Shown piece after piece: positions 15,782 to 54,787 of a DNA stretch of 64,000 nt; the stretch's first letter is position 1; each line of letters opens with the position of its first letter. The notes under the pieces are model-generated. The model saw only the letters and a program-made list of their open reading frames with translations, was not told the DNA's origin and did not search any database. Both the position numbers and the translations under genes were made by a program. The stretch comes from Chromobacterium phragmitis (GTDB lineage: Bacteria > Pseudomonadota > Gammaproteobacteria > Burkholderiales > Chromobacteriaceae), in NCBI RefSeq assembly GCF_003325475.1, contig NZ_CP029495.1, positions 2,631,353 to 2,695,352 of the forward strand, given 5' to 3'.

Positions 15782-15787
15782 GCTGGC

Positions 15788-24598: not shown

Positions 24599-24622
24599 TC
24601 CTGACTTCTTCTCTTCCGACAA

Positions 24623-24648: not shown

Positions 24649-24720
24649 TGGCGCCGCGGAGTCATTATGGACTCGACTTGCGCCAATCGATGGCCATACT
24701 GAATACGTGCCCGCGCCGGA

Positions 24721-27700
24721 TTGGTGCGGCGGCTTGCGGGAGGGGGAATGGAGGCCGATAGCCGGCGCTTGCGCAATATCATGGTCATGGCCTACGTGCT
24801 GATCGCCGCTGTCTGGATCGTCGTGCCTGACATGTTGGCGATCATGGGGGGCGAGGAGGGCGGCGTCGCGGGCGGACTGGTCTGGGACGCGTTGTTTGTC
24901 TTCGTCACCGCTGTTTTCCTGTACCTGCTGCTGCGCGGACGCCGCGCGGAGGATATGGCGGGGCTGAAACGGGCGGGCGCGCCGGGGCGGGCATTGTTGC
25001 GGCTGGCAAGCCGGGGGCCCGCGCCCTTGATCGCGCTGTACGCTGTGTCGGCGATGCTGATCCTGGCCGCGCCGGAGTTGTTGTGGTCGCGCCTGCTGGA
25101 CAGCCGGCTGTATTTTCGCGTGATCCCGGTTTGGGATCTGGCCTTCATCGCCGGTAGCGGGGCTTTGCTGCGGCTATGCCTGGACTCGGAGGCCGCTGGC
25201 GATCGCGGGCCGGAGGGCGGCAAGCGGTTTGTCTATCTGTTCGCCCTGGCCAGCTCGCTGCTCATGTTGTTCATCCGTTTTCAATTGTCTCCGCAGTTCT
25301 CCAGCCAGCATCTGATGTTGCTGTTTCTGATTCCAATCGGCCTGAGCGCGCTGCTGGGCGGCTTGGGGCCAGGCTTGCTGGCCACGTTCTTCATCGCGGC
25401 TTCGATAGCCTATCTGTTCGCCGCCGCCGCGCCGGACATGCCGGCGCATCCGGCTGTTTTTCTGCTGTCGCTCAGCCTGCTGGTGCTGGTGGGCACGCTG
25501 CTCAGCGTGATGAGCGAAGTGCAGCTGCGCGCGCGGGCCAGGCTGGCTCAACTGCTGTCGCTGCAGGCGGACATGGTGGATGCGCTGGGTCGGAGCGAGG
25601 AGCGCTTCCGCGCGCTGTTCGACGACAGTCCGGTGGCGATGGCCATCTCTCGGCTGGAGGACGGCGCCATCGTCGAAGCCAACCGCGCATTTCTGGAGTT
25701 GTTGGGCCTGGAGCGCATGCCGGTGCAGGGAAGCACCACGCGCGGGCTGGGCATTTGGGCAGACATCAAGGATAGGACGCGCCTGTTCGATGCGTTGCGG
25801 AAAGATGGGGAAGTGAAGGGGGCTCCCGTGCGGCTGTTGCGCAGCGACGGCGCCGGGCTCGACGTGCTGTTGTCATTCAGGCTGATTCAGCTTGGCGGCG
25901 TGGATCACGTGCATGGCGTGGCGCTGGACGTCAGCGATAGGCAGCGCGCGCAGCTGGCCTTGCAGGACAGCGAAGCCCGGCTGGCCGGCATGGTCCGTTC
26001 CGCGATGGACGGCATCATCACGGTGGACGAGGAGCAAAGGATAGTCTTGTTCAACGTGGCTGCCGAGCAGATATTCGGCCGCCGGGCGGAGGACATGTTG
26101 GGACAGCCGTTGGAGGGGCTGCTTCCGGCTAGCATGCGCTCGTCGCATCGGCAGATGATGCGCAGTTTCGGCGAGCGTGGCGTCAGCGCCAGGCGCATGG
26201 GACGCTTGGGCAAGGTCCAGGGCATGCGCGCCGATGGCCAGCTGTTCGATCTGGAGGCGTCGATTTCGACTCTGGAGGTAGGGGGGCGGCGCAGCTATAC
26301 CGTTATCCTGCGGGATATCAGCGAGCGCGAGCGGGCGCAAGCGGAAACGCTGCGACACATGCAGCAGTTGGAGTCGCTGAACGATTTGAACCGCGCGATC
26401 CTGACCGCCAACGACGCCGAGCAGATCGCGCTGATCGGACTGCGCAGCTTGCGCCGGCTGGTGCCGTTTTGGGGCGCCACCGCGATGTTGATCGATTGGG
26501 AGGGCGGGTTCGCCAAGGTGCTGGCCATCGAGCGGGTGGCCGGCGCCGGCTACGACCCTGGCCAACGGCTGAGCCTGATCAGTTACGGCATGGACGATCT
26601 GGAGCGGATGAAGAAGGGAGAGCCGTGCCTGGTGGGGGACCTGGCCACGGTGTCCAGGCGTCCGCTGACGCTGGAGCGGCTGTATCAGCAGGGCGTTCAA
26701 TCCTATGTGCGCATCCCGCTGATGGCTGAAGGCCGCTTGCTGGGCATGCTGAACCTGGTTTCGGACGCACAGGGCGCTTTCGACGAGGCGCAACTGGAGG
26801 TGGCCCAAGCTTATGCCCGGCAATTGGCGATCTGTCTGCAACAGTCTTTGCTGCGTCAGCATGTGGCCCGTCTGGGACGGGTTTACGAGGTGCTGAGCCG
26901 GATCAACGCGCTGATCGTCCGGTGTCGCGATCGCGAGGCGCTGTTCGACGGCATCTGCAAGGTGGCGCTGGAAATCGGCGCCTATCGTATGGCCTGGGCC
27001 GGCGTGATTGACGAAGACACGCAGAATGGCACGGTGGTCGCCTTCCGAGGCGAGGACAGCGACTATCTCAGGCAGATAAGGCTGAGCGCGCGCGAGGACT
27101 TTCTGTACAAGGACAGGCCGGCCTGCCGGGCGGTGCGGCTGCGGGAAATGGTGGTGTGCAACGACGTGCAGGGCGATCCCTCGTTGTATAGCCAGGCGGC
27201 GGAGCTGCAGAGCCACGGCGTGCGCGCTGTCGCCTGCCTGCCCATCCTGCTGGACGACAAGGCGGTCGCCGTGGTGGCGTTGTTCGCCGGCGACGTGGGC
27301 GCCTTCGATCGCCAGGAAACGACACTGTTGCGAGAGTTGGCCAGCGATGTCGGCTATGCGCTGGATCATATCCGCAAGGAAGAGCGCCTGCATTATCTGG
27401 CCTACTACGACAGCCTTACCGGCCTCGCCAATCGCAGCCTGCTGGGCGAGCGGCTGGCGCAGCATATGTCGGATGTCGCGGTGGAAGGGCGGCGTTTCTC
27501 GGTGGCCGTCTTCGATCTGGAAAACTTCAAGTCCATCAACGACGTGCTGGGACGCGTCCAGGGGGACAAGGCGCTGCAGTTGTTGACGAAGCGGCTGGCG
27601 CTGCATGCCCCGGACGCCTCGCTGCTGGCGAGGCTGGGGGCGGATCGGTTCGCGTTGGGGCTGCCGCTGGCATCCGGAGAGGAAGAGGCGGCGCTGGCGC

Positions 27701-28692
27701 TGGAACTGGTGAGGCAGAATTGCCTGGATGCGCCCATCGTGCTGGACGGGAATGAGTTGCGCTTGTCCGCCAAGTTCGGTCTTGCCATCTATCCGGATGA
27801 CGCCGATACCGCCACTTCCTTGTTGGAACGAGCGGAGTCGGCTTTGAAGCGGGCGAAGGCGGGCGGAGAGAAGTTCCTGTTTTATCGCCAGGAAATGACG
27901 GATCGGGCCGCGGCGGTGCTGGAGATGGGCAGCCGTTTGCGCCAGGCGCTGGAGCGGGAGCAGTTTGAACTGCATTACCAGCCCAAGTTCGCGGCGAAAG
28001 GCCATGCGCTGGCCGGCGTGGAGGCGCTGCTGCGTTGGCGCTGCCCGGAGCGCGGCATGGTGTCGCCGGCGCAGTTCGTGCCGATGCTGGAGGAACTGGG
28101 ACTGATCGTGGAGGTGGGCGATTGGGTGGTGCGTCAGGCGGCGCGCGACTTCCAGGCCTGGAGAGCGGCGGGCCTGGACGCCCCGAGGATCGCGGTCAAC
28201 GTATCGCCGCTGCAACTGCGGCAGGCGGATTTCGCGCAGTCGCTGGCCGCCGCGCTGGGGATGCCGGCTGACCAGGCCGGCATAGACATCGAGATAACCG
28301 AAAGCCACATCATGGCGGATGTGGACAGCAGCATCGCCACCTTGCGGCAGGTCAGGGACTTGGGCGTCTCCATCGCGCTCGACGATTTCGGCACCGGCTA
28401 TTCCTCTCTGGCCTATCTCGCCCGTCTGCCGGTGCAGACGCTGAAGATAGACCGCGCCTTCGTCAGCAGGATGCAGGAGGAAGAGGAAGCGATGACGCTG
28501 GTGGAGATGATCGTCTCGCTTGCGCACTCGATGGATCTGGAAGTCGTGGCGGAGGGGGTGGAAACGGAATCGCAGGCCCAGGTGCTGGAGGGTTTGGGCT
28601 GCGATGTGCTGCAGGGCTACTGGCTGAGCCGGCCGGTGCCGGCGGCCGAGCTGGCGGCCAGGCTGGCCGCCGGGGGGGGAGGGGCGGCATAG
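24721..28692 (+). CDS. Very large multidomain sensor with membrane region, PAS, GAF, GGDEF and EAL domains
   Basis: 1323 aa. Multi-TM N-terminus, PAS blocks, GAF-like regions, GGDEF-like RLGADRF site (degenerate), EAL (…EALLRW…DDFGTGYSSL…). The precise start, 24721 or the downstream Met, is uncertain. Confidence 0.85.
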   Translation: MVRRLAGGGMEADSRRLRNIMVMAYVLIAAVWIVVPDMLAIMGGEEGGVAGGLVWDALFVFVTAVFLYLLLRGRRAEDMAGLKRAGAPGRALLRLASRGPAPLIALYAVSAMLILAAPELLWSRLLDSRLYFRVIPVWDLAFIAGSGALLRLCLDSEAAGDRGPEGGKRFVYLFALASSLLMLFIRFQLSPQFSSQHLMLLFLIPIGLSALLGGLGPGLLATFFIAASIAYLFAAAAPDMPAHPAVFLLSLSLLVLVGTLLSVMSEVQLRARARLAQLLSLQADMVDALGRSEERFRALFDDSPVAMAISRLEDGAIVEANRAFLELLGLERMPVQGSTTRGLGIWADIKDRTRLFDALRKDGEVKGAPVRLLRSDGAGLDVLLSFRLIQLGGVDHVHGVALDVSDRQRAQLALQDSEARLAGMVRSAMDGIITVDEEQRIVLFNVAAEQIFGRRAEDMLGQPLEGLLPASMRSSHRQMMRSFGERGVSARRMGRLGKVQGMRADGQLFDLEASISTLEVGGRRSYTVILRDISERERAQAETLRHMQQLESLNDLNRAILTANDAEQIALIGLRSLRRLVPFWGATAMLIDWEGGFAKVLAIERVAGAGYDPGQRLSLISYGMDDLERMKKGEPCLVGDLATVSRRPLTLERLYQQGVQSYVRIPLMAEGRLLGMLNLVSDAQGAFDEAQLEVAQAYARQLAICLQQSLLRQHVARLGRVYEVLSRINALIVRCRDREALFDGICKVALEIGAYRMAWAGVIDEDTQNGTVVAFRGEDSDYLRQIRLSAREDFLYKDRPACRAVRLREMVVCNDVQGDPSLYSQAAELQSHGVRAVACLPILLDDKAVAVVALFAGDVGAFDRQETTLLRELASDVGYALDHIRKEERLHYLAYYDSLTGLANRSLLGERLAQHMSDVAVEGRRFSVAVFDLENFKSINDVLGRVQGDKALQLLTKRLALHAPDASLLARLGADRFALGLPLASGEEEAALALELVRQNCLDAPIVLDGNELRLSAKFGLAIYPDDADTATSLLERAESALKRAKAGGEKFLFYRQEMTDRAAAVLEMGSRLRQALEREQFELHYQPKFAAKGHALAGVEALLRWRCPERGMVSPAQFVPMLEELGLIVEVGDWVVRQAARDFQAWRAAGLDAPRIAVNVSPLQLRQADFAQSLAAALGMPADQAGIDIEITESHIMADVDSSIATLRQVRDLGVSIALDDFGTGYSSLAYLARLPVQTLKIDRAFVSRMQEEEEAMTLVEMIVSLAHSMDLEVVAEGVETESQAQVLEGLGCDVLQGYWLSRPVPAAELAARLAAGGGGAA

Positions 28693-29252: not shown

Positions 29253-30848
29253 TCAGACCCGGCCGGACTCTCGGATCGCCTGCCAGCTCAGGCCGAAGCG
29301 CGCCAGGTATTTGCGCAGCCGGTCGGCGTCGTTGGGGTTGGCCTTGTCCAGCCGCGACATGGCGAACAGGCGGCGGCCGGCGTCGGACAGCGAGTCCGCC
29401 TGGCGGCAGACGCGCAGCACGGCCTCCAGTTGCGCGCGGTCGAACAGGTCAAGCGCAGCTTGCCGCTCCGCGCTCAGCGGCGCGAGCGCGGCCGAGTCGC
29501 CGCCCTCATCTTGCCACTCGCGCCGCAGGCGCTGGATTTCCTCGTCCACCACCGCGTCGTCGATGCGGCCAGCGTCGGCCAGCGTGGCCATCCGCGTCAC
29601 CGATGCCGACAGCTCGCGGAAATTGCCCGGCCAGCGCGCCTGCGGCGACAGCGCGAAGTCCAGGTAGCCGCGGCGGGCCTCGGCGTTGAAACGCGCGTGG
29701 CGTCCCTGCTCGCCGGCGTGGCGCGCCAGTTCGAATTCCAGGTTGGGCTCGATGTCCTCGCGCCGTTCGGCCAGGGCGGGCAGTTCGAAATTCCACAGAT
29801 TGATGCGCGCGTACAAGTCCTCGCGGAACTTGCCATCGCGCACCCATTGCCGCAGGTCGCGCATGGTGCCGCACACCAGCTGGAAGTCGCTGGTCGCCTC
29901 GCGGTCGCCGCCGAAAGGAAAGAAGCGTTTTTCTTCGATCGCCTTCAGCAGCATCGCTTGCTCGTCCAGCCCCAGTTCGCCGATCTCGTCCAGGAACAGC
30001 AGGCCGTCGTCAGCGCCGCGCAGCAGGCCGGCCCGCTCGCTCAGCGCGCCGGTGAAGGCGCCTTTGACGTGGCCGAACAGCGCCGACATCGCGCTGTCGC
30101 CGCGCAAGGTGGCGCAGTTGACCTCGACGAAGCGGCCGGCCAGCTGATGGCGGGCCTTTTTCACCTCGTACAGACGTCGAGCCAGCTGGCTCTTGCCGGC
30201 GCCGGTGGGGCCGCGCAGCAGGATGGGGGCGGACGAGCGCGCGGCCACCCGCTCGATCTGCTCGATCATGCGGTTGAAGCGCGGGTTGCGGGTGGCGATG
30301 CCGGACTTGAGGAAGGCCACGGTGTCCTCGCTTTGCTGCGCGAAGCGGCTGGCGATGCGGTCGTAGCGGGCCAGGTCCAGATCGATCACGCTGACCAGCC
30401 CGGCGAAGTCGTTGTCCTGCCGGGTCGGCGAGCTTTGCAGCAGCCGCGCCGGGATGCGGCGCGATTCTGCCAGCAGGAACCAGCAAATCTGCGCGACGTG
30501 GGTGCCGGTGGTGATGTGCAGCAGGTAGTCCTCGTGGTCTGCGTCGAACGGGTAGCGGCCGGCGAAATCGTCCAGCGCCGAGTACATTTCGCCGAAATCC
30601 CACGGGTCTTCCAGGTTCAGCGCATGCAGCCTCACCTCGGTGCCGGGAGACGCTTCCGCGATGTCGCGCGCGGTCTGCTCCGCCAGTTTCCGGTGGTGGT
30701 TGTCGTGCAGCAGCTCCAGCCGCGCCAGCGGCAACTGCGGCTGGCGGCAGATGCCGACGCTGGGCCGCCATTTGCGCCAGCGCGCCGCGCCGTAGCCGCC
30801 GTTGTCCAGTACCGTGCCCAGAAACCCTATCGCCACCTTGCTGCGCAT
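29253..30848 (-). CDS. rtcR: Sigma-54-dependent transcriptional activator RtcR (CARF-domain N-terminus + AAA+ + HTH)
   Basis: 531 aa. N-terminus MRSKVAIGFLGTVLD… typical of the RtcR CARF domain; AAA+ Walker A GPTGAGKS; ESELFGH-equivalent (SALFGHVKGAFTG); C-terminal HTH. Divergent from a sigma-54 promoter. Confidence 0.88.
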   Translation of the reverse strand: MRSKVAIGFLGTVLDNGGYGAARWRKWRPSVGICRQPQLPLARLELLHDNHHRKLAEQTARDIAEASPGTEVRLHALNLEDPWDFGEMYSALDDFAGRYPFDADHEDYLLHITTGTHVAQICWFLLAESRRIPARLLQSSPTRQDNDFAGLVSVIDLDLARYDRIASRFAQQSEDTVAFLKSGIATRNPRFNRMIEQIERVAARSSAPILLRGPTGAGKSQLARRLYEVKKARHQLAGRFVEVNCATLRGDSAMSALFGHVKGAFTGALSERAGLLRGADDGLLFLDEIGELGLDEQAMLLKAIEEKRFFPFGGDREATSDFQLVCGTMRDLRQWVRDGKFREDLYARINLWNFELPALAERREDIEPNLEFELARHAGEQGRHARFNAEARRGYLDFALSPQARWPGNFRELSASVTRMATLADAGRIDDAVVDEEIQRLRREWQDEGGDSAALAPLSAERQAALDLFDRAQLEAVLRVCRQADSLSDAGRRLFAMSRLDKANPNDADRLRKYLARFGLSWQAIRESGRV

Positions 30849-30880
30849 TGCTTATCCATTTTTATATTCGACTAGATGAT

Positions 30881-30956
30881 TTTATCGAAAAATGAATGGG
30901 CAGGTAAGGCGGGAGAGGGCTGGACTCGGGTGGCGGAAAATAATTTATCGATATTT
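30881..30956 (+). promoter_or_regulatory. Putative upstream activator region for RtcR (two TTTATCGA-containing AT-rich boxes)
   Basis: TTTATCGAAAAAT at 30881-30893 and TTTATCGATATTT at 30944-30956, 55-115 bp upstream of the -24/-12 element. The intervening AT-rich DNA is compatible with a bending site. Assignment is inferential. Confidence 0.35.
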
Positions 30957-30997
30957 ATCAGTCTCTTGGTAATTATTTCAGGGTGTTTTCAGCCGGC

Positions 30998-31013
30998 TGG
31001 CACGGTTCTGGCA
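30998..31013 (+). promoter_or_regulatory. Sigma-54 (-24/-12) promoter TGGCAC-N5-TGGCA
   Basis: TGGCACggttcTGGCA matches the RpoN consensus (GG at -24, GC at -12). Oriented toward the SPFH-rtcB operon and divergent from rtcR. Confidence 0.75.
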
Positions 31014-31136
31014 AAGATAGCCTCGACCGAGCGGAAGCCATCATGGCCCACGGGAGGCGGTTGCCACCGCCCCGGTGCGCGGCGCCAGCCAAGCTGTCGC
31101 GGCCGCGCATGCCGCCAATGGCGGATGCCCGGTCTC

Positions 31137-31179
31137 GGCGATGAAGGGCTGAAAGCGGGTTCGATTCCCGCCATCGCCA
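31137..31179 (+). ncRNA. Candidate tRNA-like minihelix (acceptor-like stem + T-arm) in the rtcB operon leader; possible Y-RNA/YrlA-like module
   Basis: GGCGATG…GCGGGttcgattCCCGC CATCGCC A: a 7-bp acceptor-like stem closing a canonical T-arm (GGTTCGATTCC), no anticodon arm. Lies 125 nt downstream of the sigma-54 promoter and about 250 nt before the first CDS. Confidence 0.4.
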
Positions 31180-31190
31180 TCTTGGGTAAG

Positions 31191-31220
31191 GGCGCTTGCG
31201 CCTGCGGGTTCGAATCCCGC
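31191..31220 (+). ncRNA. Second T-arm-like element (GCGGGttcgaatCCCGC) preceded by a small GC hairpin, same leader
   Basis: GGCGCttgCGCC hairpin followed by a perfect T-arm consensus GGTTCGAATCC. Not part of any tRNA cloverleaf. Confidence 0.35.
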
Positions 31221-31429
31221 GTTTGACACTCTCGAGCAGCACCGAACCGGCGCGGCCCTGGCCGCCGCCGCAGGCCGCCGATGCCGGCCCCGTCCGGCGG
31301 GCAGCCGGCGGAGCCGACGCGCAGCGGAAATCACGCCGGCGCTTCGCCCCCGCCAGGCCCCTCGCCGGGCCGGACAGGCATCCGCGCTTGCGGCGCAACC
31401 GGTTCAACCATTGAAGAAAGAAAACGAAG

Positions 31430-32568
31430 ATGAAACTGTGGCGAACATTCCTGGTGAAGAAGAACGAACGCGGCCTGTTGCTGCGCGACGGCGATTTCGT
31501 GGCGATCCTGCAGCCGGGCGAATACCCATACTTCGATCCGCGCCAGCGTTACGCGGTGGAGCCGTGCCCGCTGCGCAAGGGCCGTTTCCAGCACGCGCTG
31601 GCCGATTATCTGCGCGAGCATGAGCCGGCGCTGCTGGACGAGCACTTCCATGTCGTCGAAATCGGCGACGAAGAAGTGGGCCTGCGCCTTGAGCAAGGCT
31701 CGCTGGCGGAGATCCTGCCGCCGGGCAGCCGCGGCCTGTATTGGAAAGACGCGGCGGCGCTGGAAGTGCGCAAAGCCGATTTGCGCCAGGGCTGCGAAGT
31801 GGCGGCCGAATGGCTGCCGCGCTTGACCCAGGGCAGCCTGCGCGGCAACCCGGTGGCCGGCTTGGCTGGCGTGCTGAACGTGCAGGTGCCGGCCTGGCAT
31901 TGCGGCGTGCTGCGGGTGGACGGCGACGCGCCGCGCCTGCTGCAGCCGGGACGCTACGGTTTCTGGCGCTTCAATCGCGAGCTGGAGGTGGATCTGGTCG
32001 ATACCCGCTTGCAGCCGCTGGAAGTGAGCGGGCAGGAAATCCTGACCCGCGACAAGGTAGGCCTGCGCATCAATCTGGCGGCCAACTGGCGCTACGCCGA
32101 CGTGGCGCTGGCCTTCGCCAAGCTGGCCAAGCCGGCCGACCATGTCTACCGCGAGCTGCAGTTCGGCCTGCGGGCGGCGGTGGGCGAGCGCACGCTGGAC
32201 CAGTTGCTGGAGGACAAAAAGCAATTGGACGAGGTGGTGCTGGCGCACATGCAGGACAAGCTGGCCGGATTCGGCGTGGAAGTGAGCAGCCTGGGCGTCA
32301 AGGACGTGGTGCTGCCGGGCGACATGAAGCAGTTGCTGGCGCAGGTGGTGGAGGCGGAGAAGGCGGCGCAGGCCAATGTGATCCGCCGCCGCGAGGAAAC
32401 CGGCGCCACCCGTTCCCTGCTGAACACGGCCAAGGTGATGGAAGACAACCCGACCGCCTTGCGCTTGAAGGAGCTGGAGACGCTGGAGCGCCTGGCGGAG
32501 CGCATAGACAAGATTTCCGTATTCGGCGGCTTGGACCAGCTGCTGAACGGATTGGTGAAGATCAAGGC

Positions 32569-32572
<4 letters not shown>
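31430..32572 (+). CDS. SPFH/band-7 (slipin-like) domain protein, first gene of the RtcR-controlled operon
   Basis: 380 aa. Central band-7 region (…VGLRINLAANWRYADVALAFAK… then a coiled-coil with EAEKAAQANVIRRREETGA…). ATGA overlap with the rtcB start. Confidence 0.7.
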
Positions 32573-33816
<1,244 letters not shown>

Positions 33817-33857
33817 AAAATAGATGGAGCCGGCCTGCGGGCCGGCGGAAGGACGAT

Positions 33858-34664
33858 ATGTACGCATTCAAATATGACCATCCGCTGGACGACGGCGTGC
33901 GCCGGCGGGTGATGGACGAGCTGGCCGCGCTGGAGCGCCGCCGCGATGTGCGGGTGCTGTACGCCTGCGAGTCGGGCAGCCGCGCCTGGGGCTTCGCCTC
34001 GCCGGACAGCGATTACGACGTGCGCTTTCTGTATGTGCATCGCCCCGAGTGGTATCTGCGGGTAGAGCGGCAGCGCGACGTGATCGAACAGCCTCTGGAC
34101 GACGAACTGGACGTCAGCGGCTGGGAGCTGCGCAAGGCGCTGCAATTGCTTAACCGTTCCAATCCGACGCTGTTCGAGTGGCTGCAATCGCCGCTGGTGT
34201 ACCGCGCCGACGAGGACGCGACGGCGGCGTTGCGCGAGCTGATGCCGGATTTCCACTCGCTGGCGCGCTGCCGCTGGCATTACCTGTCGATGGCGCGCAA
34301 GCACCATCAAGGCTACCTGCAAGGCGAAACCGTGCGGCTGAAGAAGTATTTGTACGTGTTGCGGCCGCTGCTGGCGGTGCGCTGGCTGGACGCCGGCCGT
34401 GGCTTGCCGCCCATGCGCTTCGCCGACCTGGCCGCGGCGACGGTGGACGACGCGCGATTGGCGGACGAGATCAATCATCTGCTGGCCGTCAAGATGGCCG
34501 CCGGCGAGGCGCGTCAGGGACCGCGACTGCCCAGGCTGGACGCTTTCATCGCCGCCATGCTGGCCGAGCCGGCGCCTCCGCTGCCCGGCGGCCATGGCGG
34601 CGACCCGAGGCGGCTGGACGCGCTGTTGCGCCGGTTGGCGCTGGGGGAGGCGCTGGCTGCCTGA
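33858..34664 (+). CDS. Pol-beta-superfamily nucleotidyltransferase domain protein, last gene of the rtcB operon
   Basis: 269 aa. N-terminal GS…DxD minimal nucleotidyltransferase signature (ESGSRAWGFASPDSDYDVRFLYV) followed by a helical domain. Confidence 0.65.
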   Translation: MYAFKYDHPLDDGVRRRVMDELAALERRRDVRVLYACESGSRAWGFASPDSDYDVRFLYVHRPEWYLRVERQRDVIEQPLDDELDVSGWELRKALQLLNRSNPTLFEWLQSPLVYRADEDATAALRELMPDFHSLARCRWHYLSMARKHHQGYLQGETVRLKKYLYVLRPLLAVRWLDAGRGLPPMRFADLAAATVDDARLADEINHLLAVKMAAGEARQGPRLPRLDAFIAAMLAEPAPPLPGGHGGDPRRLDALLRRLALGEALAA

Positions 34665-39339: not shown

Positions 39340-39369
39340 CGCGGATCGTTTTCTCCCGATCCAGACAAG

Positions 39370-39399
39370 AAAAAACCGCCGCATCGCGCGGCGGTTTTT
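39370..39399. terminator. Bidirectional Rho-independent terminator between convergent chitinase and prfH
   Basis: A6-CCGCCGC-atcgc-GCGGCGG-T5. Confidence 0.75.
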
Positions 39400-39409: not shown

Positions 39410-40027
39410 TTAGGATGCAGGCCGGAAGCGCTCGCCGTGGAACACCCGGAGGGGATTGCCGCGCTCAACCTCCCAGTGCAGCTGGCGGCGGCGGCCGCGC
39501 AGGTCGGCGTCGGCCTGCTCGGCAAGCTCGCCCAGTTTGTGGGCCAACAGCAACAGCGCCAGCCGTTTGTTGGCGTGCTGGCTGCGTTCGCTTTGCACGC
39601 GGACGCTGACGCCGCTGGCCAGATGCACGGCGCGGACCGCGGATTCGGTCTTGTTGACGTGCTGGCCGCCGGGGCCGGAGGCGCGGCAGGTTTCGATGCG
39701 CACCTCGCCGCCGCCGGCCGGGGCGGGCGTTTCGCAGCGCGCGACGCCGACGAACCAGTTCTTGCGCGGATGGCGCGGCCGGTACGGGCTGGAGCAGGTC
39801 CATTGGATGGTGCCGATCCAGGCGGCGGCCAGCGCATCTTCGGCCTCGCCGTCCAGCGCCAGCAGCGCCGAGCGCACGGTTCCGGCGCGGGGACCGGGTT
39901 CGCTTTCCAGCAGCGCGGCCTTCACGCCGGCGGCGTGCGCCTCGGCTTGCAGCCGGGACAGCGTCTTGGCCGCGGCCAGCGCGCATTCGTCGGGGCCTTG
40001 GGCGGCGGTGATCTGCAGCAATATCAT
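39410..40027 (-). CDS. prfH: Peptide chain release factor H (RF2 paralogue, GGQ domain)
   Basis: 205 aa from MILLQITAAQGPDECALA…, which matches the PrfH N-terminus pattern. GGQ motif GPGGQHVNKTESAV. ATGA overlap with the rtcB2 stop. Confidence 0.85.
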   Translation of the reverse strand: MILLQITAAQGPDECALAAAKTLSRLQAEAHAAGVKAALLESEPGPRAGTVRSALLALDGEAEDALAAAWIGTIQWTCSSPYRPRHPRKNWFVGVARCETPAPAGGGEVRIETCRASGPGGQHVNKTESAVRAVHLASGVSVRVQSERSQHANKRLALLLLAHKLGELAEQADADLRGRRRQLHWEVERGNPLRVFHGERFRPAS

Positions 40028-41271
40028 CAGCAGCACTCCCCGCGCGTCTTGTAGCTCAGCACCGGACGCAGCCGCGCCAACAGCTCGATCAGGCCGGCGC
40101 GGCGCAGCGCGTCCACCACGCTGTCCACCGGCTTGTACGCTTCCGGCGCCTCTTCGTAGATCAGCTCGCGGTCGCGGCAGATCACGTGGCTGCCCAGCTT
40201 GGTTCGGGATAGCTGCGCCGGGGTGTAGCGGCGCGACAGCCTGTCCTTGCACTCGCTGCGCATCCATTTCCGTCCCGCGCCGTGCGCCAGAGAGTACAGG
40301 CTGGCGGCCTGGGGCAAGGGACGCGCCAGGTAGCTGAAGTCGCCGCGCGAGCCGGGGATCACCACCGCGCCGGCGTCGGCCGGCGTGGCGCCCTTGCGGT
40401 GCAGCCAGCCGTCCAAGCCGTCTACTCGGGACGGCAGCACCAGGTTGTGGTGGATGTCCAGCACGGGCTCGCCTTCGGCGCGCAGCCTATCCAGCATGCG
40501 GCGCGCGATCAGCTCGCGGTTCGCCTCGGCGAAGCGCAGCGCGTCGCCGTGGCGCGCCAGGTAGGCGCGGCAGGCGTCGCCGCCGCTTTCCAGTCCGCGG
40601 TGGCCGTATTGGTCCACATGCTCGCGCAGGATGGCCTGGCCCAGGCCGCGGGAGCCGCTGTGCGCCAGCAGCAGCAGCCGGCGCGGGTCTATCGCCAGCG
40701 TGCCGAGCGCGGCCTCGTCGTATACCTCGTCAATCCGCTGCAGTTCGGCGAAATGATTGCCGCCGCCTATGGTGCCCAGCGCGGAGCGGAAGCCGATGTG
40801 CGCCGGCAGCAGCGCGTCGGCTTGCTCGCGCCATTCGTCGGACAGCGGGCCGTCCAGGTCGCCCAGGCGCTTGTCCAGTTTCTCGGGCTGGCTCTTGCGC
40901 GCGTCTAGCGAGGTTTGCCACAGCGCCATGCCGCAGCCGATGTCGCCGCCTATCAGCGCCGGATACAGCCTGCCGACGGAGAAAAACGCCGCGCCGACAG
41001 GGTAGCCGCGGCCGGGATGCAAATCCGGCATGCCGGCCACGCGGCGCATGCCGGGCAGGGCGGCGGTGGTTTGAAGTTGCTGGATCGCGTTGCCTTCGAT
41101 CCAGGTGTCGTCCGAGGCGATCAGGGTGACGCCTTCAGACAGTTGCTGAATGCAGTGGGTATTGCCCATGAAATTCCAAATCAGGTCAGTCTGAAAAGGC
41201 AGGCGGGCTTGGGGTGATGCGAAAACGCGCGTCAGCGCGGGAAAGAAACGATCAACCTTGCAGGCCTGCAT
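40027..41271 (-). CDS. rtcB: RtcB-family RNA ligase paralogue (RtcB2, PrfH-associated)
   Basis: 414 aa with RtcB motifs (DIGCGM; GGGNHF; HGAGR). Highly diverged from the first RtcB in this window. Confidence 0.85.
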   Translation of the reverse strand: MQACKVDRFFPALTRVFASPQARLPFQTDLIWNFMGNTHCIQQLSEGVTLIASDDTWIEGNAIQQLQTTAALPGMRRVAGMPDLHPGRGYPVGAAFFSVGRLYPALIGGDIGCGMALWQTSLDARKSQPEKLDKRLGDLDGPLSDEWREQADALLPAHIGFRSALGTIGGGNHFAELQRIDEVYDEAALGTLAIDPRRLLLLAHSGSRGLGQAILREHVDQYGHRGLESGGDACRAYLARHGDALRFAEANRELIARRMLDRLRAEGEPVLDIHHNLVLPSRVDGLDGWLHRKGATPADAGAVVIPGSRGDFSYLARPLPQAASLYSLAHGAGRKWMRSECKDRLSRRYTPAQLSRTKLGSHVICRDRELIYEEAPEAYKPVDSVVDALRRAGLIELLARLRPVLSYKTRGECC

Positions 41272-41390
41272 TGGCGGAAAGATGAACAGCGCGTCGCATG
41301 GTTTTCCTCCTTTGCAGTCAGGGTTGATGAATGAAGAGGGCGAATGCTAGCACGGCGATATTCCAGATGCAAGCGCCAGGCTGCGGCGCG

Positions 41391-48824: not shown

Positions 48825-49801
48825 GGCCAGCAGGCTGGGCGGATGGGTGGGGACTTGATTGTGCAGCAGCCAGCGGCTGCGGGCGGGATGACGGTTGTTC
48901 AGGGAAAACGCGAGATGCGATGAACTGCGGGTGATGCTAGGCATGGCAAAACCCTCCTGGATAGGTGCTTAACCCTGCCAACCCCAACGCCAAGTAGGGG
49001 TGGCAGGCACATGGCGGGATTGGCGTACCGATCCAGGAGCGGCGCATCATAGATGCTCCCACCATGGCCCGCCATAGAGGACGTGCAATGGTGTACGGAC
49101 GCGACAAGGCCCAGCCTTGCACAGAAGTCCGCCTGAATGCGGGACGCCAATCCCGGTGCCGCTATTGAACGGCACGATTGAGATTATCCGGCTGGAAGGC
49201 TTGCTAGGCAAGCAATTGGGGCTGGAATAGGGTGTGCTTTGGGGCAGTACGTAGAATCCGCTGCGCGGCTGATGGTTTGGATTGCCGGGGTTGCCCGGCG
49301 GCAGGCTTGAAGGGATTGGGGCGCGTCGCAAACGCGCTTGCGTTTTGCCAGCGATGAATAGGGCATGACATTTTGCCGTGGCTTGCTTAATCGGTAGCTG
49401 AACCGAACCGACTTGCCCCCATCCCATCAGCGCAAGCCGACTTCGGAGCCATTTTCAAGGTTTTAAGACGCCGGTTTGTTCGACGTCGCGCGACGGTAGC
49501 GCGCGGCTAGTTCCGGCGGCTCCTTGAAAATGGCTTCGGAGGCGGGGTTTCGCAGCGCTGTTGGGTCGCCTTTTCTTTCGTCCATTTCTTTTGGCGAAGC
49601 AAAAGAAATGGACCCGTCCAGCCGGGCGGAACCGGCACTTAACGGTCAGTCCGCGAAGCGGACACAAACTAATCTGTATTACGTGGTAGCCGTTTGACCT
49701 TGGTGGCTCAGTCGCGATTTGCGGACTTTAAACGAATTGCGAACTTCAAGCTTTGCTAGGCTAGTGAATGAATTATAATTTTATTGAGTGAAAAGGTGAA
49801 A

Positions 49802-49829
49802 TAAAAAAGCACTTGTTTCTCAAGTGCTT
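49802..49829 (-). terminator. Rho-independent terminator ending the AT-rich island operon
   Basis: AAGCACTTG-agaaa-CAAGTGCTT + T-tract on the minus strand. Confidence 0.75.
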
Positions 49830-49860
49830 CCGAGTGCGGAGCTTTACTTTATTGGGTTGG

Positions 49861-50190
49861 CTAACTATTTTTAATGAGATCTTTCTTTTCAACTTCTTGG
49901 CTTTCAATATTTCTTTTTGTCTCTTTGAAAGCCTGAACAAAACTGTTAATGAGTTTTTCTCTCTTGTTATTCGTTGGTGACAGTTTTTCTCTGCATGATG
50001 TTTTTTCTATTTTCCACCCAGTCCTTATTTTTTCTTTTTTGGTGGCTGGTAAAGAGCTGTTCTCTATTGATCTAAATGATTTAACTTGAGGTAGCGATGA
50101 GCGTAGAGCTTTGTCTAGCTCTATAATAAATATTCTTTCTGACTCGGTTGGAGCTCTAAGTTTATTAATTTTTGCCATTTTTATCTCCAT
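49861..50190 (-). CDS. Lys/Glu-rich hypothetical protein, distal gene of the AT-rich island
   Basis: 109 aa, strongly AT-biased codons, 15 bp downstream of the 570-aa gene on the same strand. Confidence 0.5.
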   Translation of the reverse strand: MEIKMAKINKLRAPTESERIFIIELDKALRSSLPQVKSFRSIENSSLPATKKEKIRTGWKIEKTSCREKLSPTNNKREKLINSFVQAFKETKRNIESQEVEKKDLIKNS

Positions 50191-50205
50191 AATGAGCTGT
50201 GGAAA

Positions 50206-51918
50206 TTAACCTAGCCACTGAGCTGGATTGCTAATTTTCAGTGGCTCAGCCCCCATAAGTTCAAATCTGACAGCATTGTCATCAGTACGATTATCCATCG
50301 TTACCTGTTGACTCTGCATTGCCGCTAAAGATAAAAGAAAGCCATGATGGCGATCTGGCAATATCAAATGTTGAGTCTTTCCCGTGTGGTGCTTCCAAAG
50401 GGCGACGGAGCGAACTCCGTTAGTTTCTTGTCGATTTGATCTATCTACCATCGCGGCAGAAGTAACACTTAAAATTGCTGATCCGGGGTCATCAGCTAGT
50501 ACTGTTGCATAACGAGCCGGCCAGCGTGTTGTGAGCTGTGGCCCATCCATCAGTAATGCTATCACGAGGTTGGGTCCGATAGCTCGTACAGCAGGAAGTG
50601 CGGGATCGTTACGTGCCAAATCCTCACATACCAAGACGGCTATACACGCATCTCTCTGGATTGTATAGAACGGTAGATGTCTTTCTGCCACGTCAATGTG
50701 CTCCCACCAGTCAACATTACTGTCTGCCGGGAATGATGAAAAGTTGTAACGTTGCGTTTGTGCAACATCAAGCTTCCATCTGTGATGCTTTGAGTGTTCG
50801 TATTGAAAAAATTCCTCATTATCAACAAGGAAATATGACATTGCTTTGTTTTTTGGGATTTTATTTGGAACGCTACTTATAACACCTGAAATTAAAATTC
50901 TAAGGCCATTTATATATTCATCCCTAGCTAAAATACGAGCGAGCTCATATGAAACCTCTTCAGTCAGTGAACACTCTGGGAAGATAACACAATCAATTTT
51001 TTTGTAGTGTCTTCTTGATTCAAGTAGAAGAGGTTTGACAAGATCATTGTATATATTCTTGGCAATTTCACATGGTTGCTCTTTTCCAAAACCTGGTATC
51101 CAAGATGGGTCTAGTTCAAAGTAGCCAAATTTTTTAATATTTTTCTTACTCGCTTTGGGGGGACATCTTGGTCTTATTGCAGTCGCTTTCATTTCAAATG
51201 GATACGGGATGAATAGAGCATTAAATCTTGTTTCGTCAGATAATAGAAAGTTTTCAGGGCTTAAAGATTCGACATTTTGCAATGAGTTCCAAGAAATTTT
51301 CAGCTTAGGCTGAGCTTCATGAAGTGCAAGGTGATGACTTAAAGATCGAATTGAAAATCCTACGGATGGGCATATTGACTTTGGTGTGACTACAGCTCTT
51401 TGGGGAGGTATTGCGTAGCATAAGGAGAATGGAAAGTATGGAGGCCTAAGGCATTCAAGTTTTTGACTTGTAATTGCCTGTAAGTTATCTATTTTCATTA
51501 ATTTTGGGAAGAGCAGTCCGCTAAAAACGGAGTCTTGAAAGTCTAATCCCCAACCTAACCCTGCTGAAGCTTCGTCAGAGCAAGTAAATAAAAAATGTAT
51601 TTCTGAGACTAATTTCTCATCTCTATATATTTGATCAATTGCAGTTAATCTTTTCTTGTAGATGTAAGACCAGCTTCTTTTTATTTCTGAAGGAGGAGAG
51701 AAATTATCTTTCCATTCTGAGGCTACGGATGATATTGACTTCCTGCGAGTAAACTTTTTGGGATTTAAAAGGACGGCTTTTTCCATTATGGTTGCAGTAA
51801 AAGCAAACGTATCTGATGGCCAAGATGGACAATTTTCTACGGATTTTCCAAAGTTAAAATTTTCATTACTTTGTGTCCCATTTGGGAATAGAAATTCTAT
51901 CATGTCTTGTATGTTCAT
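50206..51918 (-). CDS. Large hypothetical protein of the AT-rich island; C-terminal half has a candidate nitrilase/CN-hydrolase-like Glu-Lys-Cys triad
   Basis: 570 aa uninterrupted ORF in a region of about 35-40% G+C (estimate by eye). Motifs VIFPE (E315), YEHSKHH (K377) and VLVCEDL (C431), spaced as in the nitrilase superfamily. N-terminal 300 aa show no recognisable domain. Confidence 0.55.
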   Translation of the reverse strand: MNIQDMIEFLFPNGTQSNENFNFGKSVENCPSWPSDTFAFTATIMEKAVLLNPKKFTRRKSISSVASEWKDNFSPPSEIKRSWSYIYKKRLTAIDQIYRDEKLVSEIHFLFTCSDEASAGLGWGLDFQDSVFSGLLFPKLMKIDNLQAITSQKLECLRPPYFPFSLCYAIPPQRAVVTPKSICPSVGFSIRSLSHHLALHEAQPKLKISWNSLQNVESLSPENFLLSDETRFNALFIPYPFEMKATAIRPRCPPKASKKNIKKFGYFELDPSWIPGFGKEQPCEIAKNIYNDLVKPLLLESRRHYKKIDCVIFPECSLTEEVSYELARILARDEYINGLRILISGVISSVPNKIPKNKAMSYFLVDNEEFFQYEHSKHHRWKLDVAQTQRYNFSSFPADSNVDWWEHIDVAERHLPFYTIQRDACIAVLVCEDLARNDPALPAVRAIGPNLVIALLMDGPQLTTRWPARYATVLADDPGSAILSVTSAAMVDRSNRQETNGVRSVALWKHHTGKTQHLILPDRHHGFLLSLAAMQSQQVTMDNRTDDNAVRFELMGAEPLKISNPAQWLG

Positions 51919-52021
51919 AATTTCTCTCTCAACAATCTCTTCCCGAAATTTCTATACCCGTATAGGTATATGGATTTTTTACCGTGGTGTGACTTTATAA
52001 GTAGGTATTTTAATGAATGAA

Positions 52022-52080: not shown

Positions 52081-53589
52081 TTACTCCGGACGCATATGCG
52101 GGAACAAGATTACATCTCGGATAGACGGCGCATCCGTCAACAACATCACCAAACGGTCGATGCCGATGCCGCAACCACCAGTCGGCGGCAGGCCGTATTC
52201 CATCGCGCGGATGTAGTCGGCGTCGTAGTGCATCGCCTCGTCGTCGCCGGCGTCCTTCTGCGCCACTTGCGCCTGGAAGCGCGCGGCCTGGTCTTCCGGA
52301 TCGTTCAACTCGGAATAGCCGTTGGCGTGCTCGCGGCCGACGATGAACAGCTCGAAACGCTCGGTCAGGCCCGGCTGGGTGTCGGAGCCGCGTGCCAGCG
52401 GGGAGACTTCCACCGGGTAGTCGATGATGAAGGTCGGGTTCCACAGCAGCGACTCGGCGCATTCTTCGAACAGCGCCAGCTGCAGGCTGCCCAGGCCCGG
52501 CGCCGGGGGCAGCTTGCCGCCCAGGCGCTTGATCTCGCTGGCCACCCAGGCGGAATCGGACAGTTGCGCGTCGGTGTATTGCGGGTTGTAGTGCTTGATC
52601 GCTTCCACGATGGTGAAACGGTCGAACGGTTTGCCCAGGTCCACTTCCTTGCCTTGGTAGGTCACGGTGGTGGCGCCGCAGGAAACCAGCGCGCATTCGC
52701 GGATGATGGTTTCGGTCATCTCCATCATGCGCTGGTAGTCGCTGTACGCTTCGTAGAACTCGATCATGGTGAACTCGGGGTTGTGGCGCGTGCTCATCCC
52801 CTCGTTGCGGAAGTTGCGGTTGATCTCGAACACGCGTTCCAGGCCGCCCACCACCAGGCGCTTCAGGTACAGCTCCGGGGCGATGCGCAGGTAGAGCGGC
52901 ATGTCCAGGGCGTTGTGGTGGGTGACGAAGGGCTTGGCCGACGCGCCGCCCGGGATCGGGTGCATCATCGGGGTTTCCACTTCCAGGTAGCCTTCGCCCA
53001 CCATCACGTCGCGCACTTTCTGCACGATCTTGGAGCGCTTGATGAAGGTGTCGCGGCTTTCCTCGCTCATGATGAGGTCGGCGTAGCGCTGGCGGTACTT
53101 GGTTTCCTGATCGGCGATGCCGTGGAATTTTTCCGGCAGCGGACGGATGTTCTTGGACAGCATGCGCACTTCGGTGGCTTGCACGGTCAGTTCGCCGGTC
53201 TTGGTCTTGAACAGCAGGCCCTTGACGGCGATGATGTCACCCAGGTCCCAGCGCTTGAAGTCGGCGTAGACGTCTTCGCCCACGTTGTCGCGGGAGATGA
53301 AGGCCTGGATGCGGCCGCTCACGTCTTGCAGCGTGGCGAAGCTGGCTTTGCCCATCACACGTTTAAGCATCATGCGGCCGGCGACGGCGACTTCGATTTT
53401 CTCGGCTTCCAGCGCTTCCGCTTCTTTGGCGGCGTGGTCGTCCTGCAGCGGTTTGGCGAAGTGGCTGCGTTTGAAGTCGTTGGGGTAGGCGATGCCTTTT
53501 TCGCGGATCGCCTGCAGTTTCAGGCGGCGTTCCGCCATGATCTGGTTTTCGTCTTGGCTTTGCGCCTGTGCTTGTTCGTGATCAGACAT
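52081..53589 (-). CDS. lysS: Lysyl-tRNA synthetase (class II)
   Basis: 502 aa. N-terminal OB anticodon-binding domain and class II motifs 1-3 (…FRNEG…; …[15 protein letters not shown]…). Confidence 0.95.
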
Positions 53590-53679: not shown

Positions 53680-54787
53680 TTAGACGCCGTGCTTGAGGCT
53701 GGCTTCGATGAAGCCGTCCAGGTCGCCGTCCATGACGCCCTTGATGTTGCCCACTTCGTAGCTGGTGCGCAAATCCTTGATGCGGGACTGGTCGAACACG
53801 TAGGAGCGGATCTGGTGGCCCCAGCCCACGTCGGTCTTGGTGTCTTCCAGCGCCTGCTTGGCCTCGTTGCGCTTCTTGAGCTCCAGCTCGTACAGTTTGG
53901 CGCGCAGCATCTGCCAGGCCTCGTCGCGGTTGCGGTGCTGGGAACGGTCGTTCTGGCACTGCACCACGATATTGGTCGGGATGTGGGTCAGACGCACGGC
54001 GGAGTCGGTCTTGTTGATGTGCTGACCGCCGGCGCCGGAGGCGCGGTAGGTATCGGTGCGCACGTCCGCCGGGTTGATGTCGATCTCGAAGCTGTCGTCC
54101 ACTTCCGGATACACGAACACCGACGAGAACGAGGTGTGGCGGCGGGCGTTGGAGTCGAACGGCGACACGCGCACCAGGCGGTGCACGCCCACTTCGGTGC
54201 GCAGCAGGCCGTAGGCGTATTCGCCCTCTATCTTCAGCGTGGCGCTGGTGACGCCGGCCACTTCGCCTTCGGACAGTTCCAGCACGTCCACCTTGAAGCC
54301 CTTGCGCTCGGCGTAGCGGGTGTACATGCGCAGCAGCATGCCGGCCCAGTCCTGGGCTTCGGTGCCGCCGGCGCCGGCCTGGATGTCGATGAAGCAGTTG
54401 GTCGGGTCCATCGGGTCGTGGAACATGCGGCGGAATTCCATCTTCGCCACTTTCTCTTCCACTTCTTCCAGATCGGCCTGAACCGCGAGGATGGTGTCGT
54501 CGTCTTCCTCGCTCTTGCCCATGTCGAACAGTTCGCGGCTGTCGCCGATGGTGGCGTTGATGCTGTCCAGCACCAGCACCACGTCTTCCAGCTGTTTGCG
54601 TTCGCGGCCCAGATCCTGCGCCTTTTTGGGGTCGTTCCAGATATCCGGGTCTTCGGTCAGGCGGCTGACTTCTTCCAGACGGTCTTTTTTACCGTCGTAG
54701 TCAAAGATACCCCCGAATATCGGCGGCGCGGGCGGCCAGGTCTTCGATTTTGGCCGCGATTTGGTTCAAAACTTCAACTTCGATCAT
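53680..54787 (-). CDS. prfB: Peptide chain release factor 2 with programmed +1 frameshift
   Basis: Frame 0 from ATG 54787: [28 protein letters not shown] then in-frame TGA within AGG GGG TAT CTT TGA C (minus strand, about 54703-54718). +1 frame continues [12 protein letters not shown]… through the SPF/GGQ domain ([16 protein letters not shown]). Classic prfB-lysS operon. Confidence 0.92.

Follow-up and report, generated by a model that had tools for sequence, protein, structure and literature searches.

A putative stalling-sensing leader of the PA5471.1/armZ type upstream of the rtcB2-prfH ribosome-repair operon of Chromobacterium phragmitis

Introduction

What turns on a bacterial operon whose products are predicted to mend broken ribosomes? 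The question is raised by a 64-kb stretch of the Chromobacterium phragmitis genome (63% G+C; hereafter the window, meaning the whole of the DNA analysed), in which rtcB2, encoding an RtcB-family RNA ligase, lies directly upstream of prfH, encoding peptide chain release factor H, on the same strand and with a 1-nucleotide (nt) overlap. An earlier sequence-only reading of this DNA had identified the pair, noted a second RtcB system nearby and suggested that the two form an RNA-damage-response locus. We find that rtcB2-prfH is here a genuine, intact copy of the characterised RtcB2-PrfH ribosome-repair system and that it is preceded by a leader which, judged by its sequence, is a member of the PA5471.1 type, the leader of armZ in Pseudomonas aeruginosa. 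The gene pair alone adds little, RtcB2-PrfH being a characterised defence against ribosome-cleaving toxins; the conserved leader is the part worth following, and it makes damage-induced induction directly testable.

The rtcB2-prfH pairing was first described by Baranov et al. 2006 (PMC1586002). In Escherichia coli, PrfH releases peptides from 70S ribosomes only when their 16S rRNA is cut between A1493 and G1494, a 2.55-Å structure has revealed how it reads the cut end, RtcB2 religates damaged 30S subunits and not tRNA, and the pair guards cells against colicin E3-like toxins (PMC9304027, PMC9223846, PMC13166195). The substrates of RtcB2 and canonical RtcB are mutually exclusive in E. coli, the 30S subunit for the one and tRNA for the other (PMC9304027). 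A role in the rescue of ribotoxin-cut ribosomes, which the sequence-only reading presented as a proposal from comparative genomics, has since 2022 advanced beyond that status, with biochemical, structural and in vivo demonstrations in E. coli.

Results

An intact rtcB2-prfH operon

The operon comprises the following features.

39410-40027, minus strand: prfH, peptide chain release factor H, 205 amino acids, of the short class without a C-terminal tail (TIGR03072; PDB 7sa4 chain 8)
40027-41169, minus strand: rtcB2, PrfH-associated RtcB-family RNA ligase, 380 amino acids, PRK09588 family like P. aeruginosa ArmZ/PA5471 (TIGR03073, NF007153)
40025-40029, minus strand: gene junction TGATG, rtcB2 stop and prfH start with one base in common (sequence reading)
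39367-39395, both strands: terminator-like bidirectional hairpin common to prfH and the convergent chitinase gene (GC-rich stem, T-run on each strand; 39375-39395 as read past prfH)

Both proteins scored well above curated NCBIfam cut-offs, which upholds the identification of the pair. The PrfH open reading frame (ORF) reached 290.2 bits on the equivalog model TIGR03072 release_prfH (cut-off 166.65), compared with 83.5 bits on the RF2 model (cut-off 370) and 85.9 bits on the RF1 model (cut-off 400). The rtcB2 ORF scored 596.8 bits on TIGR03073 release_rtcB (cut-off 271.8) and 570.8 bits on NF007153/PRK09588 (cut-off 407), whereas RtcB1, the ligase of the neighbouring operon (32569-33816), scored 145.4 and 171 bits on these two models, below both cut-offs; the two ligases are 31% identical, as divergent as the earlier reading had held. 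RtcB2 and PrfH of this locus are already named in public C. phragmitis records: the window PrfH has 100% identity with an NCBI entry from this species that bears the name peptide chain release factor H, and the 380-residue RtcB2 is the exact sequence of WP_114063731.1. A near-identical strain (CP029554.1) has the same gene order as the window.

The closest solved relative of the window PrfH was E. coli PrfH on the damaged ribosome (7sa4 chain 8; E = 2.6e-70), with 57% identity in a gapless alignment across 201 residues. The GGQ motif is intact at residues 120-122, as had been read, and 10 of the 11 residues that make side-chain contacts in 7SA4 are kept (R52, S53, R83, H86, R88, K89, N90, R181, H184 and R189), the comparison covering the pocket for the cleaved A1493-3'-phosphate, the h18/S12 patch and the C1914 pocket; the sole changed contact residue is H85, replaced by R. 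RF domain 1 is absent from the 205-residue protein, which in RF2 finds a counterpart only in residues 64-233 of the 300-residue main frame and is 35% identical to the window's own RF2 (53680-54582). By profile scores and identities alike, the ORF groups with PrfH and not with RF2, the alternative raised in the earlier reading. RtcB2 has likewise retained its active site, which that reading had singled out for checking: in an alignment to Pyrococcus horikoshii RtcB (4dwr), the metal ligands and the histidine nucleophile are kept, with D95/C98 (GGDIGCG), N202/H203 (GGGNHF), H234 (HSGSRG), H329 (DIHHN) and H404 (LAHGAGR; His296 here) all conserved. Gene identity and the intact catalytic and recognition residues are direct observations; every activity of RtcB2 and PrfH at this locus would follow by homology from the E. 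coli system.

One alternative concerns what PrfH rescues. Members of the PrfH-CT subfamily, found in Flavobacteriia and some Actinomycetes, carry a basic C-terminal tail (225-250 amino acids in all) and rescue intact stalled ribosomes too (PMC12829566), and the window PrfH is homologous to Capnocytophaga gingivalis PrfH (PDB 9mor, E = 1.5e-40), as would be expected if it rescued ribosomes stalled on truncated mRNA in general, with both of the activities described for PrfH-CT. We regard this as very unlikely, as the 205-residue protein stops where E. coli PrfH stops, terminating 4 residues past the last aligned residue, and the basic tail that defines PrfH-CT is absent.

Two boundaries differ from those first read. 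The junction, described as a four-base ATGA overlap of rtcB2 and prfH, is in fact TGATG with 1 shared base: it reads ...TGC TGA TG ATA..., with the stop TGA at 40029-40027 and the start ATG at 40027-40025, and the gene calls of the near-identical strain also place the end of rtcB2 and the start of prfH on one base. Translational coupling of the two genes is plausible. The rtcB2 start had been placed at 41271, which counted part of the upstream leader as coding and overlooked the leader itself; we place it at the ATG at 41169, leaving 41170-41271 as leader, because the family hidden Markov model aligned only from residue 39 of the 414-residue ORF that opens at 41271, because almost all of the rtcB2 homologues collected open on MG (mostly MGN) where the window has the ATG at 41169, and because WP_114063731.1 has the corresponding length.

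The gene order is common to other genera. A PrfH scan of our genome collection returned 80 loci, dominated by RF1/RF2 matches, with 17 true PrfH loci and none from Chromobacterium; Chromobacterium contexts were obtained through exact-protein look-ups. Among the RtcB2-PrfH loci of other genera, rtcB2 lies directly upstream of prfH in 14 of 16, and the other two have an extra ORF-sized gap between the genes. The gap in Eikenella longinqua (locus L010) holds a 233-residue ORF (9303-10004) with no Pfam match, which begins 4 nt past the rtcB2 stop and shares 4 nt with the start of prfH; L015, from Neisseriaceae like L010, has a similar gap, and such loci may represent a three-gene variant of the operon.

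RF2 is also encoded in the window. The canonical prfB gene (53680-54760, minus strand) carries a programmed +1 frameshift site, GGGGGTATCTTTGAC, at about 54712-54698, and is followed by lysS (52081-53589).

A conserved leader upstream of rtcB2

The region between rtcB2 and the preceding gene contains a short upstream ORF (uORF) and a set of segments able to pair with one another and with the rtcB2 ribosome-binding site (RBS). Segment numbering is our own and may differ from that published for PA5471.1.

41161-41314, minus strand: leader RNA of the PA5471.1/armZ type, with Shine-Dalgarno sequence, uORF, long irregular hairpin and rtcB2 RBS (covariance model R1)
41306-41312, minus strand: uORF Shine-Dalgarno sequence AAGGAGG, 6 nt before the ATG (sequence reading)
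41252-41299, minus strand: leader uORF of 15 codons plus stop, encoding MRRAVHLSANAGLQG
41264-41269, minus strand: segment 2, GCAGGC, within the uORF, 5' strand of helix A (model alignment)
41199-41204, minus strand: segment 3, GCCTGC, 3' strand of helix A
41222-41239, minus strand: apical hairpin CGCGC-TGAC-GCGCG followed by TTTT, weakly terminator-like
41164-41204, minus strand: predicted RBS-occluding pairing of GCCCG/CC/TCAG with CTGA/GG/TGGGC, over the GGAA Shine-Dalgarno-like site and the rtcB2 AUG
41344-41372, minus strand: sigma-70-like promoter candidate TTGCAT-17 nt-TAGCAT (sequence reading)

The spacer from the preceding BPL_N-like gene (stop at 41391) to rtcB2 measures 221 nt, and 130 nt separate the uORF ATG from the rtcB2 ATG. 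The promoter candidate matches 8 of 12 consensus positions, below the threshold of the scanner; Chromobacterium haemolyticum has TTGCAT-17 nt-TACCAT at the equivalent place. The leader of C. haemolyticum has the same layout as that of the window, despite only 70-73% identity of the proteins.

A uORF preceded by a Shine-Dalgarno sequence proved to be a general feature of the family. We searched 77 rtcB2 loci with usable upstream DNA, from reference genomes, metagenome contigs and E. coli, for such a uORF of 8-30 codons and found one (9-30 codons) in 73, a count to be read with the relatedness of the loci in mind, as they represent 63 distinct leader sequences and not 77 independent trials. In the positive loci, the uORF mostly starts 120-300 nt upstream of rtcB2. 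The same test was positive in 5.2% of random 450-nt windows drawn from the same loci.

The uORFs share a nucleotide motif, CYTTTGCAGGYC, whose core CYTTTGCAGG is read in two frames, as Leu-Cys-Arg or as Phe-Ala-Gly depending on the set of taxa, which places the conservation in the RNA and not in the peptide. A second motif downstream, GGCCTGCCAATCC, is complementary in its 5' half to the uORF motif (helix A) and in its 3' half to the rtcB2 ribosome-binding region GGATTGG (helix B). Both helices show compensatory changes between sequence classes. For helix A, the pairings GCAGGAC:GTCCTGC, GCGGG:CCCGC, GCAGAC:GTCTGC in E. coli and GGCAGAGC:GCTCTGCC in C. haemolyticum replace one another; for helix B, CCAATCC:GGATTGG is replaced in other classes by CCACATCAG:CTGATATGG and others. 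Helix A was also recovered by RNAalifold from 34 compact leaders.

A covariance model, R1, trained on 16 leaders from other taxa and without the window, gave a single match in the 64 kb, at 41161-41314 on the minus strand (30.8 bits, E = 6.9e-7); the highest score in 1.06 Mb of RF1/RF2 loci, used as a control, was 17.5 bits. In an alignment of 60 distinct rows, 86.2% of cells were paired, compared with 79.1% after shuffling, 13 of the 17 pairs changed on both sides, and none of 500 shuffles reached any of the observed measures; when partner columns were slid, at most 54% were paired. Across the family, 5 of the 7 pairs of helix A change on both sides, with 94.6% of cells paired, and 4 of the 6 pairs of helix B covary. 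The window row contributes six consecutive helix A pairs (GC, CG, AT, GC, GC and CG; 41264-41269 with 41199-41204) followed by one mismatch. The presence of the leader, its membership of the family and its covariation are likewise observed directly. A search for a known RNA family returned no Rfam match to the leader at gathering thresholds and only noise at E values up to 10.

Could the uORF and its motifs be chance features of an ordinary spacer, with rtcB2 starting at 41271? The fold of the leader is thermodynamically not unusual, and one automated assembly source calls the 414-residue gene. Such a coincidence is nevertheless extremely improbable: a model built without the window finds the leader and nothing else in the window, the layout is kept in C. 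haemolyticum over the protein divergence given above, nearly all homologues share the MG (mostly MGN) start, and the family profile leaves the first 38 residues of the longer ORF unaligned. We therefore retain the leader and the start at 41169.

The leaders closest to that of the window (L089-L093, with RtcB2 72-74% identical) have a two-part consensus fold. The first part is a long irregular hairpin with the uORF motif at one end and the downstream segment at the other, taking in the uORF stop and an apical hairpin on the way; the second is a small hairpin covering the RBS. Terminators were considered as a general feature of the leaders and rejected, terminator-like hairpins being present in only 6 of 16. 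The window hairpin CGCGC-TGAC-GCGCG-TTTT may terminate transcription; its equivalent in L089-L093 (window 41222-41239) has no T-run after it.

One further pairing was seen at the 5' end of the leader. The Shine-Dalgarno region of the uORF (CUGCAAAGGAGGAAA, 41306-41320) can pair with the uORF interior (UUUCC..AAUGCAG, 41275-41290), and the gammaproteobacterial equivalent is CAAAGG:CCUUUG. This suggests a putative fourth segment that would mask the uORF's own RBS.

Relationship to the PA5471.1-armZ leader

The resemblance to a regulated leader is closest in P. aeruginosa. There, ArmZ (PA5471) has been described as RtcB-like, belongs to cluster PRK09588 and is co-transcribed with PA5470, annotated as prfH; ribosome-targeting drugs induce armZ via a 13-codon leader peptide, PA5471.1, encoded about 250 bp upstream, stalling on PA5471.1 alters the fold of the leader RNA, and either an amber codon at leader position 3 or deletion of the leader raises ArmZ (PMC3516279, PMC12057347, PMC13041342). 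A recent review of MexXY describes leader-peptide control of ArmZ as apparently unique. Three metagenomic loci in our set (L114, L116 and L117) have a 13-codon uORF, MIQFSTLCRLRLA, 254 nt upstream of rtcB2, in which CAG at nt 7-9 encodes Q3 and the next residue is F4. The uORF agrees with PA5471.1 in its 13 codons, its Q3 CAG at nt 7-9, its F4 and its distance of about 250 bp, an assignment that rests on these published details, an exact look-up of the presumed L117 ArmZ having returned no match. R1 matches two of the three loci at 40.8 bits.

Together, these comparisons indicate that most proteobacterial rtcB2-prfH operons carry a putative stalling-sensing leader of the armZ kind. Within the literature searched, we found no paper that treats both ArmZ and RtcB2, and the ribosome-repair studies among it, which used plasmid expression or knockouts, mention neither ArmZ nor a native promoter, leader or inducer; within the same literature, the family-wide conservation of the leader appears to be unreported.

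The kinship with ArmZ raises another interpretation of RtcB2 itself. As a member of the ArmZ/PA5471 family PRK09588 with the same type of leader as armZ, RtcB2 might act mainly as an ArmZ-like anti-repressor that binds a TetR-family repressor and thereby turns on an efflux pump, ligation being secondary. We consider this unlikely in Chromobacterium, where all RtcB catalytic residues and the tight pairing with prfH are kept; the literature searched reports binding to MexZ, through a C-terminal helix, in P. aeruginosa alone, and the window ORFs scanned included none that resembled MexZ or MexXY. The ArmZ-like and ligase roles are not mutually exclusive.

A model for ribosome repair and its control

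We consider it very probable that the chromosomal rtcB2-prfH operon provides a two-enzyme repair of ribosomes cut in the decoding centre, equipped with a stalling-sensing uORF leader and free of RtcR/sigma-54 control. A ribotoxin of the colicin E3 or CdiA-CT type would cut the 16S rRNA between A1493 and G1494, stalling the 70S ribosome. PrfH, which has no stop-codon-reading domain, would recognise the 3'-phosphorylated A1493 in its R83/H86/R88 pocket, and its GGQ loop would hydrolyse the peptidyl-tRNA, so that the ribosome could be dismantled. RtcB2 would then reseal the 16S rRNA in the free 30S subunit by GTP- and metal-dependent histidine-GMP chemistry. Both proteins would be translated off one mRNA through the stop/start overlap, and that mRNA would most likely start at the sigma-70-like promoter about 170 nt upstream of rtcB2.

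In the proposed switch, the 15-codon uORF would be strongly translated. Uninterrupted translation would melt helix A, leaving the segment GCCTGC and its flanks (GCCCG upstream; CC and TCAG downstream) to occlude the rtcB2 RBS and AUG, and the operon would be off; in long leaders, terminators could form instead of the RBS-occluding structure. If a damaged or drug-bound ribosome stalled early in the uORF, the 3' half (GCAGGC) of that reading frame would stay available to pair with the occluding segment, and rtcB2-prfH would be on. A switch turned off by translation fits the finding in P. aeruginosa that an amber codon at position 3 and deletion of the leader raise ArmZ. Both the direction of the switch and its mode, translational or transcriptional, we infer from the PA5471.1 leader.

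With less assurance, we favour the broader view that the rtcB2 leader is an ancestral, family-wide control of the ribosome-repair operon in Beta- and Gammaproteobacteria, in which a translated uORF set in an RNA switch of several covarying segments makes the ribosomes of the cell its damage sensor, ribotoxin cleavage of the decoding centre is a natural inducer, and control of MexXY by ArmZ is a later addition. If so, the operon is turned on by the same defect that it repairs, and induction of armZ by antibiotics is a side effect of a sensor of ribosome damage. The same view would join the ArmZ and RtcB2 literatures and define an RNA family absent from Rfam.

Several observations weigh against the model of the repair operon and its switch. 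The covariation alignment was fitted to the structure of the model and consists of related sequences, so that its numbers lean toward structure. Helix B is weak in the window and was left unaligned by R1, and of the occluding pairing only TCAG:CTGA, CC:GG and GCCCG:TGGGC are predicted there, in both the minimum-free-energy and centroid folds. As a single sequence, the leader folds no more stably than shuffled versions of it (z = -0.06), and in a ribosome-blocking model, run codon by codon, the unpaired fraction of the RBS moved only between 0.55 and 0.61 in the window, no clear opening, and behaved inconsistently in other loci. Thermodynamic evidence for a switch was rejected on these values, and because the thermodynamic tests gave no support, the case for the switch is a comparative one. 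For the Chromobacterium proteins, the interpretation draws on sequence and homology. Finally, about 45 window ORFs scanned with Pfam, NCBIfam, PADLOC and PHROGs included no ribotoxin, colicin, contact-dependent inhibition, immunity or defence-system protein; the ribotoxin or immunity locus that the sequence-only reading proposed to look for is not among them, and no ribotoxin gene near the operon points to a local selective pressure.

The neighbouring Rtc operon

The second RtcB system of the window consists of the following features.

29253-34664, both strands: neighbouring, separately regulated Rtc system (profile and promoter scans)
29253-30848, minus strand: rtcR (NF038308, 831.6 bits, cut-off 650)
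30998-31013, plus strand: sigma-54-type promoter TGGCACGGTTCTGGCA, before the Band7 gene (pattern scan, 1 mismatch)
31430-32572: Band7/SPFH gene
32569-33816: rtcB1 (PF01139, 422.9 bits)
33858-34664: rlaP

RtcR, a sigma-54 promoter and an RtcB ligase are thus all present, as claimed, and the stated spacing of 5.6 kb agrees with the distance from the end of RtcB1 at 33816 to the end of prfH at 39410. No RtcA was seen in the Rtc operon of the window, where Band7/SPFH and RlaP stand beside RtcB instead. The Band7 gene and rtcB1 share 4 nt (32569-32572), and the Band7 gene is missing from the Rtc operon of C. haemolyticum.

The Rtc and rtcB2-prfH operons are convergent, and the interval from RlaP to prfH holds genes for a cytochrome c, an FAD-linked oxidase, an alanine-racemase-fold protein and a GH18 chitinase. 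In C. haemolyticum, the same convergent arrangement recurs with the operons 4.4 kb apart and all intervening genes different. Identity between the window and C. haemolyticum is 70% for PrfH, 73% for RtcB2, 71% for RlaP, 78% for RtcR and 85% for RtcB1, and because the divergence of both systems is similar, we count the two Chromobacterium cases as one inherited arrangement. Elsewhere the association was not seen: within up to 10 kb per side (five loci were shorter), RtcB1, RtcR, RlaP and Band7 were found near rtcB2-prfH in 0 of the 16 RtcB2-PrfH loci from other genera, nor near one further PrfH locus with a divergent RtcB.

Control of rtcB2 by sigma-54 was considered and rejected. A pattern scan of the 41170-41390 spacer found no sigma-54 promoter, and across the window, apart from the 1-mismatch site before the Rtc operon, matches to the pattern were at chance level (36 found, 41.7 expected).

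These results bear on whether the two RtcB systems form one integrated RNA-damage-response locus whose proximity selection has maintained, for instance because both are induced together or because RtcR controls rtcB2-prfH. The recurrence of the convergent arrangement in C. haemolyticum, despite wholly different intervening genes, speaks for such a locus. It is nonetheless improbable: the similar divergence of both systems makes the two cases count once, the 17 loci of other genera described above lack the association, the leader of rtcB2 is without a sigma-54-type promoter and the sole nearby 1-mismatch match precedes the Band7 gene, the intervening genes are unrelated to RNA metabolism, and rtcB2-prfH keeps its own leader whatever the neighbouring genes. 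Of the earlier claim, then, the close spacing of two RtcB systems stands, but the step to an RNA-damage-response locus is weak, with the proximity recurring only in C. haemolyticum. We treat the proximity as a genus-level feature without demonstrated functional meaning.

In C. haemolyticum, the operon adjoins a variable island. The upstream flank of rtcB2 in three loci (L082-L084, 600-4500) varies between strains and contains defence-type genes, including those for a HEPN RiboL-PSP protein, AbiJ, and DarT with a Macro domain protein, together with an integrase fragment.

Other features of the window

A low-G+C island lies at 49000-52000 (36-43%, compared with 63-70% around it) and looks like horizontally acquired DNA. 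Its 570-residue ORF (50206-51918, minus strand) has no Pfam, NCBIfam, PADLOC or PHROGs match, at the edge of the island is an Rfam match to C4 antisense RNA (48996-49079, minus strand, 53.4 bits), and DUF1484 genes lie beside the island. Seven tRNA genes at 6586-7677 fall into two groups facing opposite ways, Ser-Arg-Glu (plus strand) and Glu-Arg-Glu-Arg (minus strand). Just upstream of rtcR, at 21788-28692, are genes for two adjacent PAS/GAF-GGDEF-EAL signalling proteins of 936 and 1323 amino acids, and the region 1272-16954 carries flagellar export and chemotaxis genes (flhA, flhB, flhF-like, fliA-like, motA and cheA).

Comparison with known systems

The nearest characterised relative is the E. 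coli RtcB2-PrfH pair (ATCC 25922/CFT073 type; PDB 7SA4), with which the window operon shares protein families, gene order and overlapping stop and start codons, a PrfH 57% identical with its cleaved-nucleotide pocket and GGQ motif, the RtcB catalytic residues, and a 15-codon uORF preceded by a Shine-Dalgarno sequence (MTNPLSMTLCRPFQD, 240 nt upstream in E. coli). The window differs in the H85 to R change, in a junction overlap of 1 nt (4 in E. coli), in a leader that is compact (130 nt from ATG to ATG) and of a different sequence class, and in its genomic context, the E. coli pair lying between dinB-yafNOP and pepD. The E. coli pair is known from experiment, the Chromobacterium proteins from sequence alone.

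PA5471.1-armZ-PA5470 of P. aeruginosa corresponds to the window operon in that ArmZ falls in PRK09588 and PA5470 is annotated prfH, and both have a short leader uORF that bears the motif and a complementary downstream segment. The leader peptides differ, MIQFSTLCRLRLA in P. aeruginosa and MRRAVHLSANAGLQG in the window, with the common RNA motif in a different frame. The P. aeruginosa leader is 254 nt long with extra predicted terminators, T0 and T1, whereas that of the window is 130 nt with a weak terminator-like hairpin. Induction by stalling is known from experiments in P. aeruginosa, the window leader from its nucleotide sequence, and anti-repression of MexZ by ArmZ is reported only in P. 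aeruginosa.

With the canonical Rtc system (RtcR-regulated RtcB, E. coli rtcBA), a member of which lies 5.6 kb away, rtcB2-prfH shares the ligase chemistry of the RtcB family and an RNA-repair role. It is set apart by the 31% identity of RtcB2 to RtcB1, which falls below the cut-offs of the RtcB2 models, and by a leader and a sigma-70-like promoter candidate in place of RtcR and sigma-54.

Finally, the proposed switch resembles leader-peptide attenuators that respond to ribosome stalling (ermC, cat and the four-segment leaders of the trp type), in which a short uORF is translated and ribosome occupancy picks between RNA pairings that control the downstream gene. There is no sequence relationship to these leaders and, in contrast to them, the products of rtcB2-prfH would repair the sensor, the ribosome, itself.

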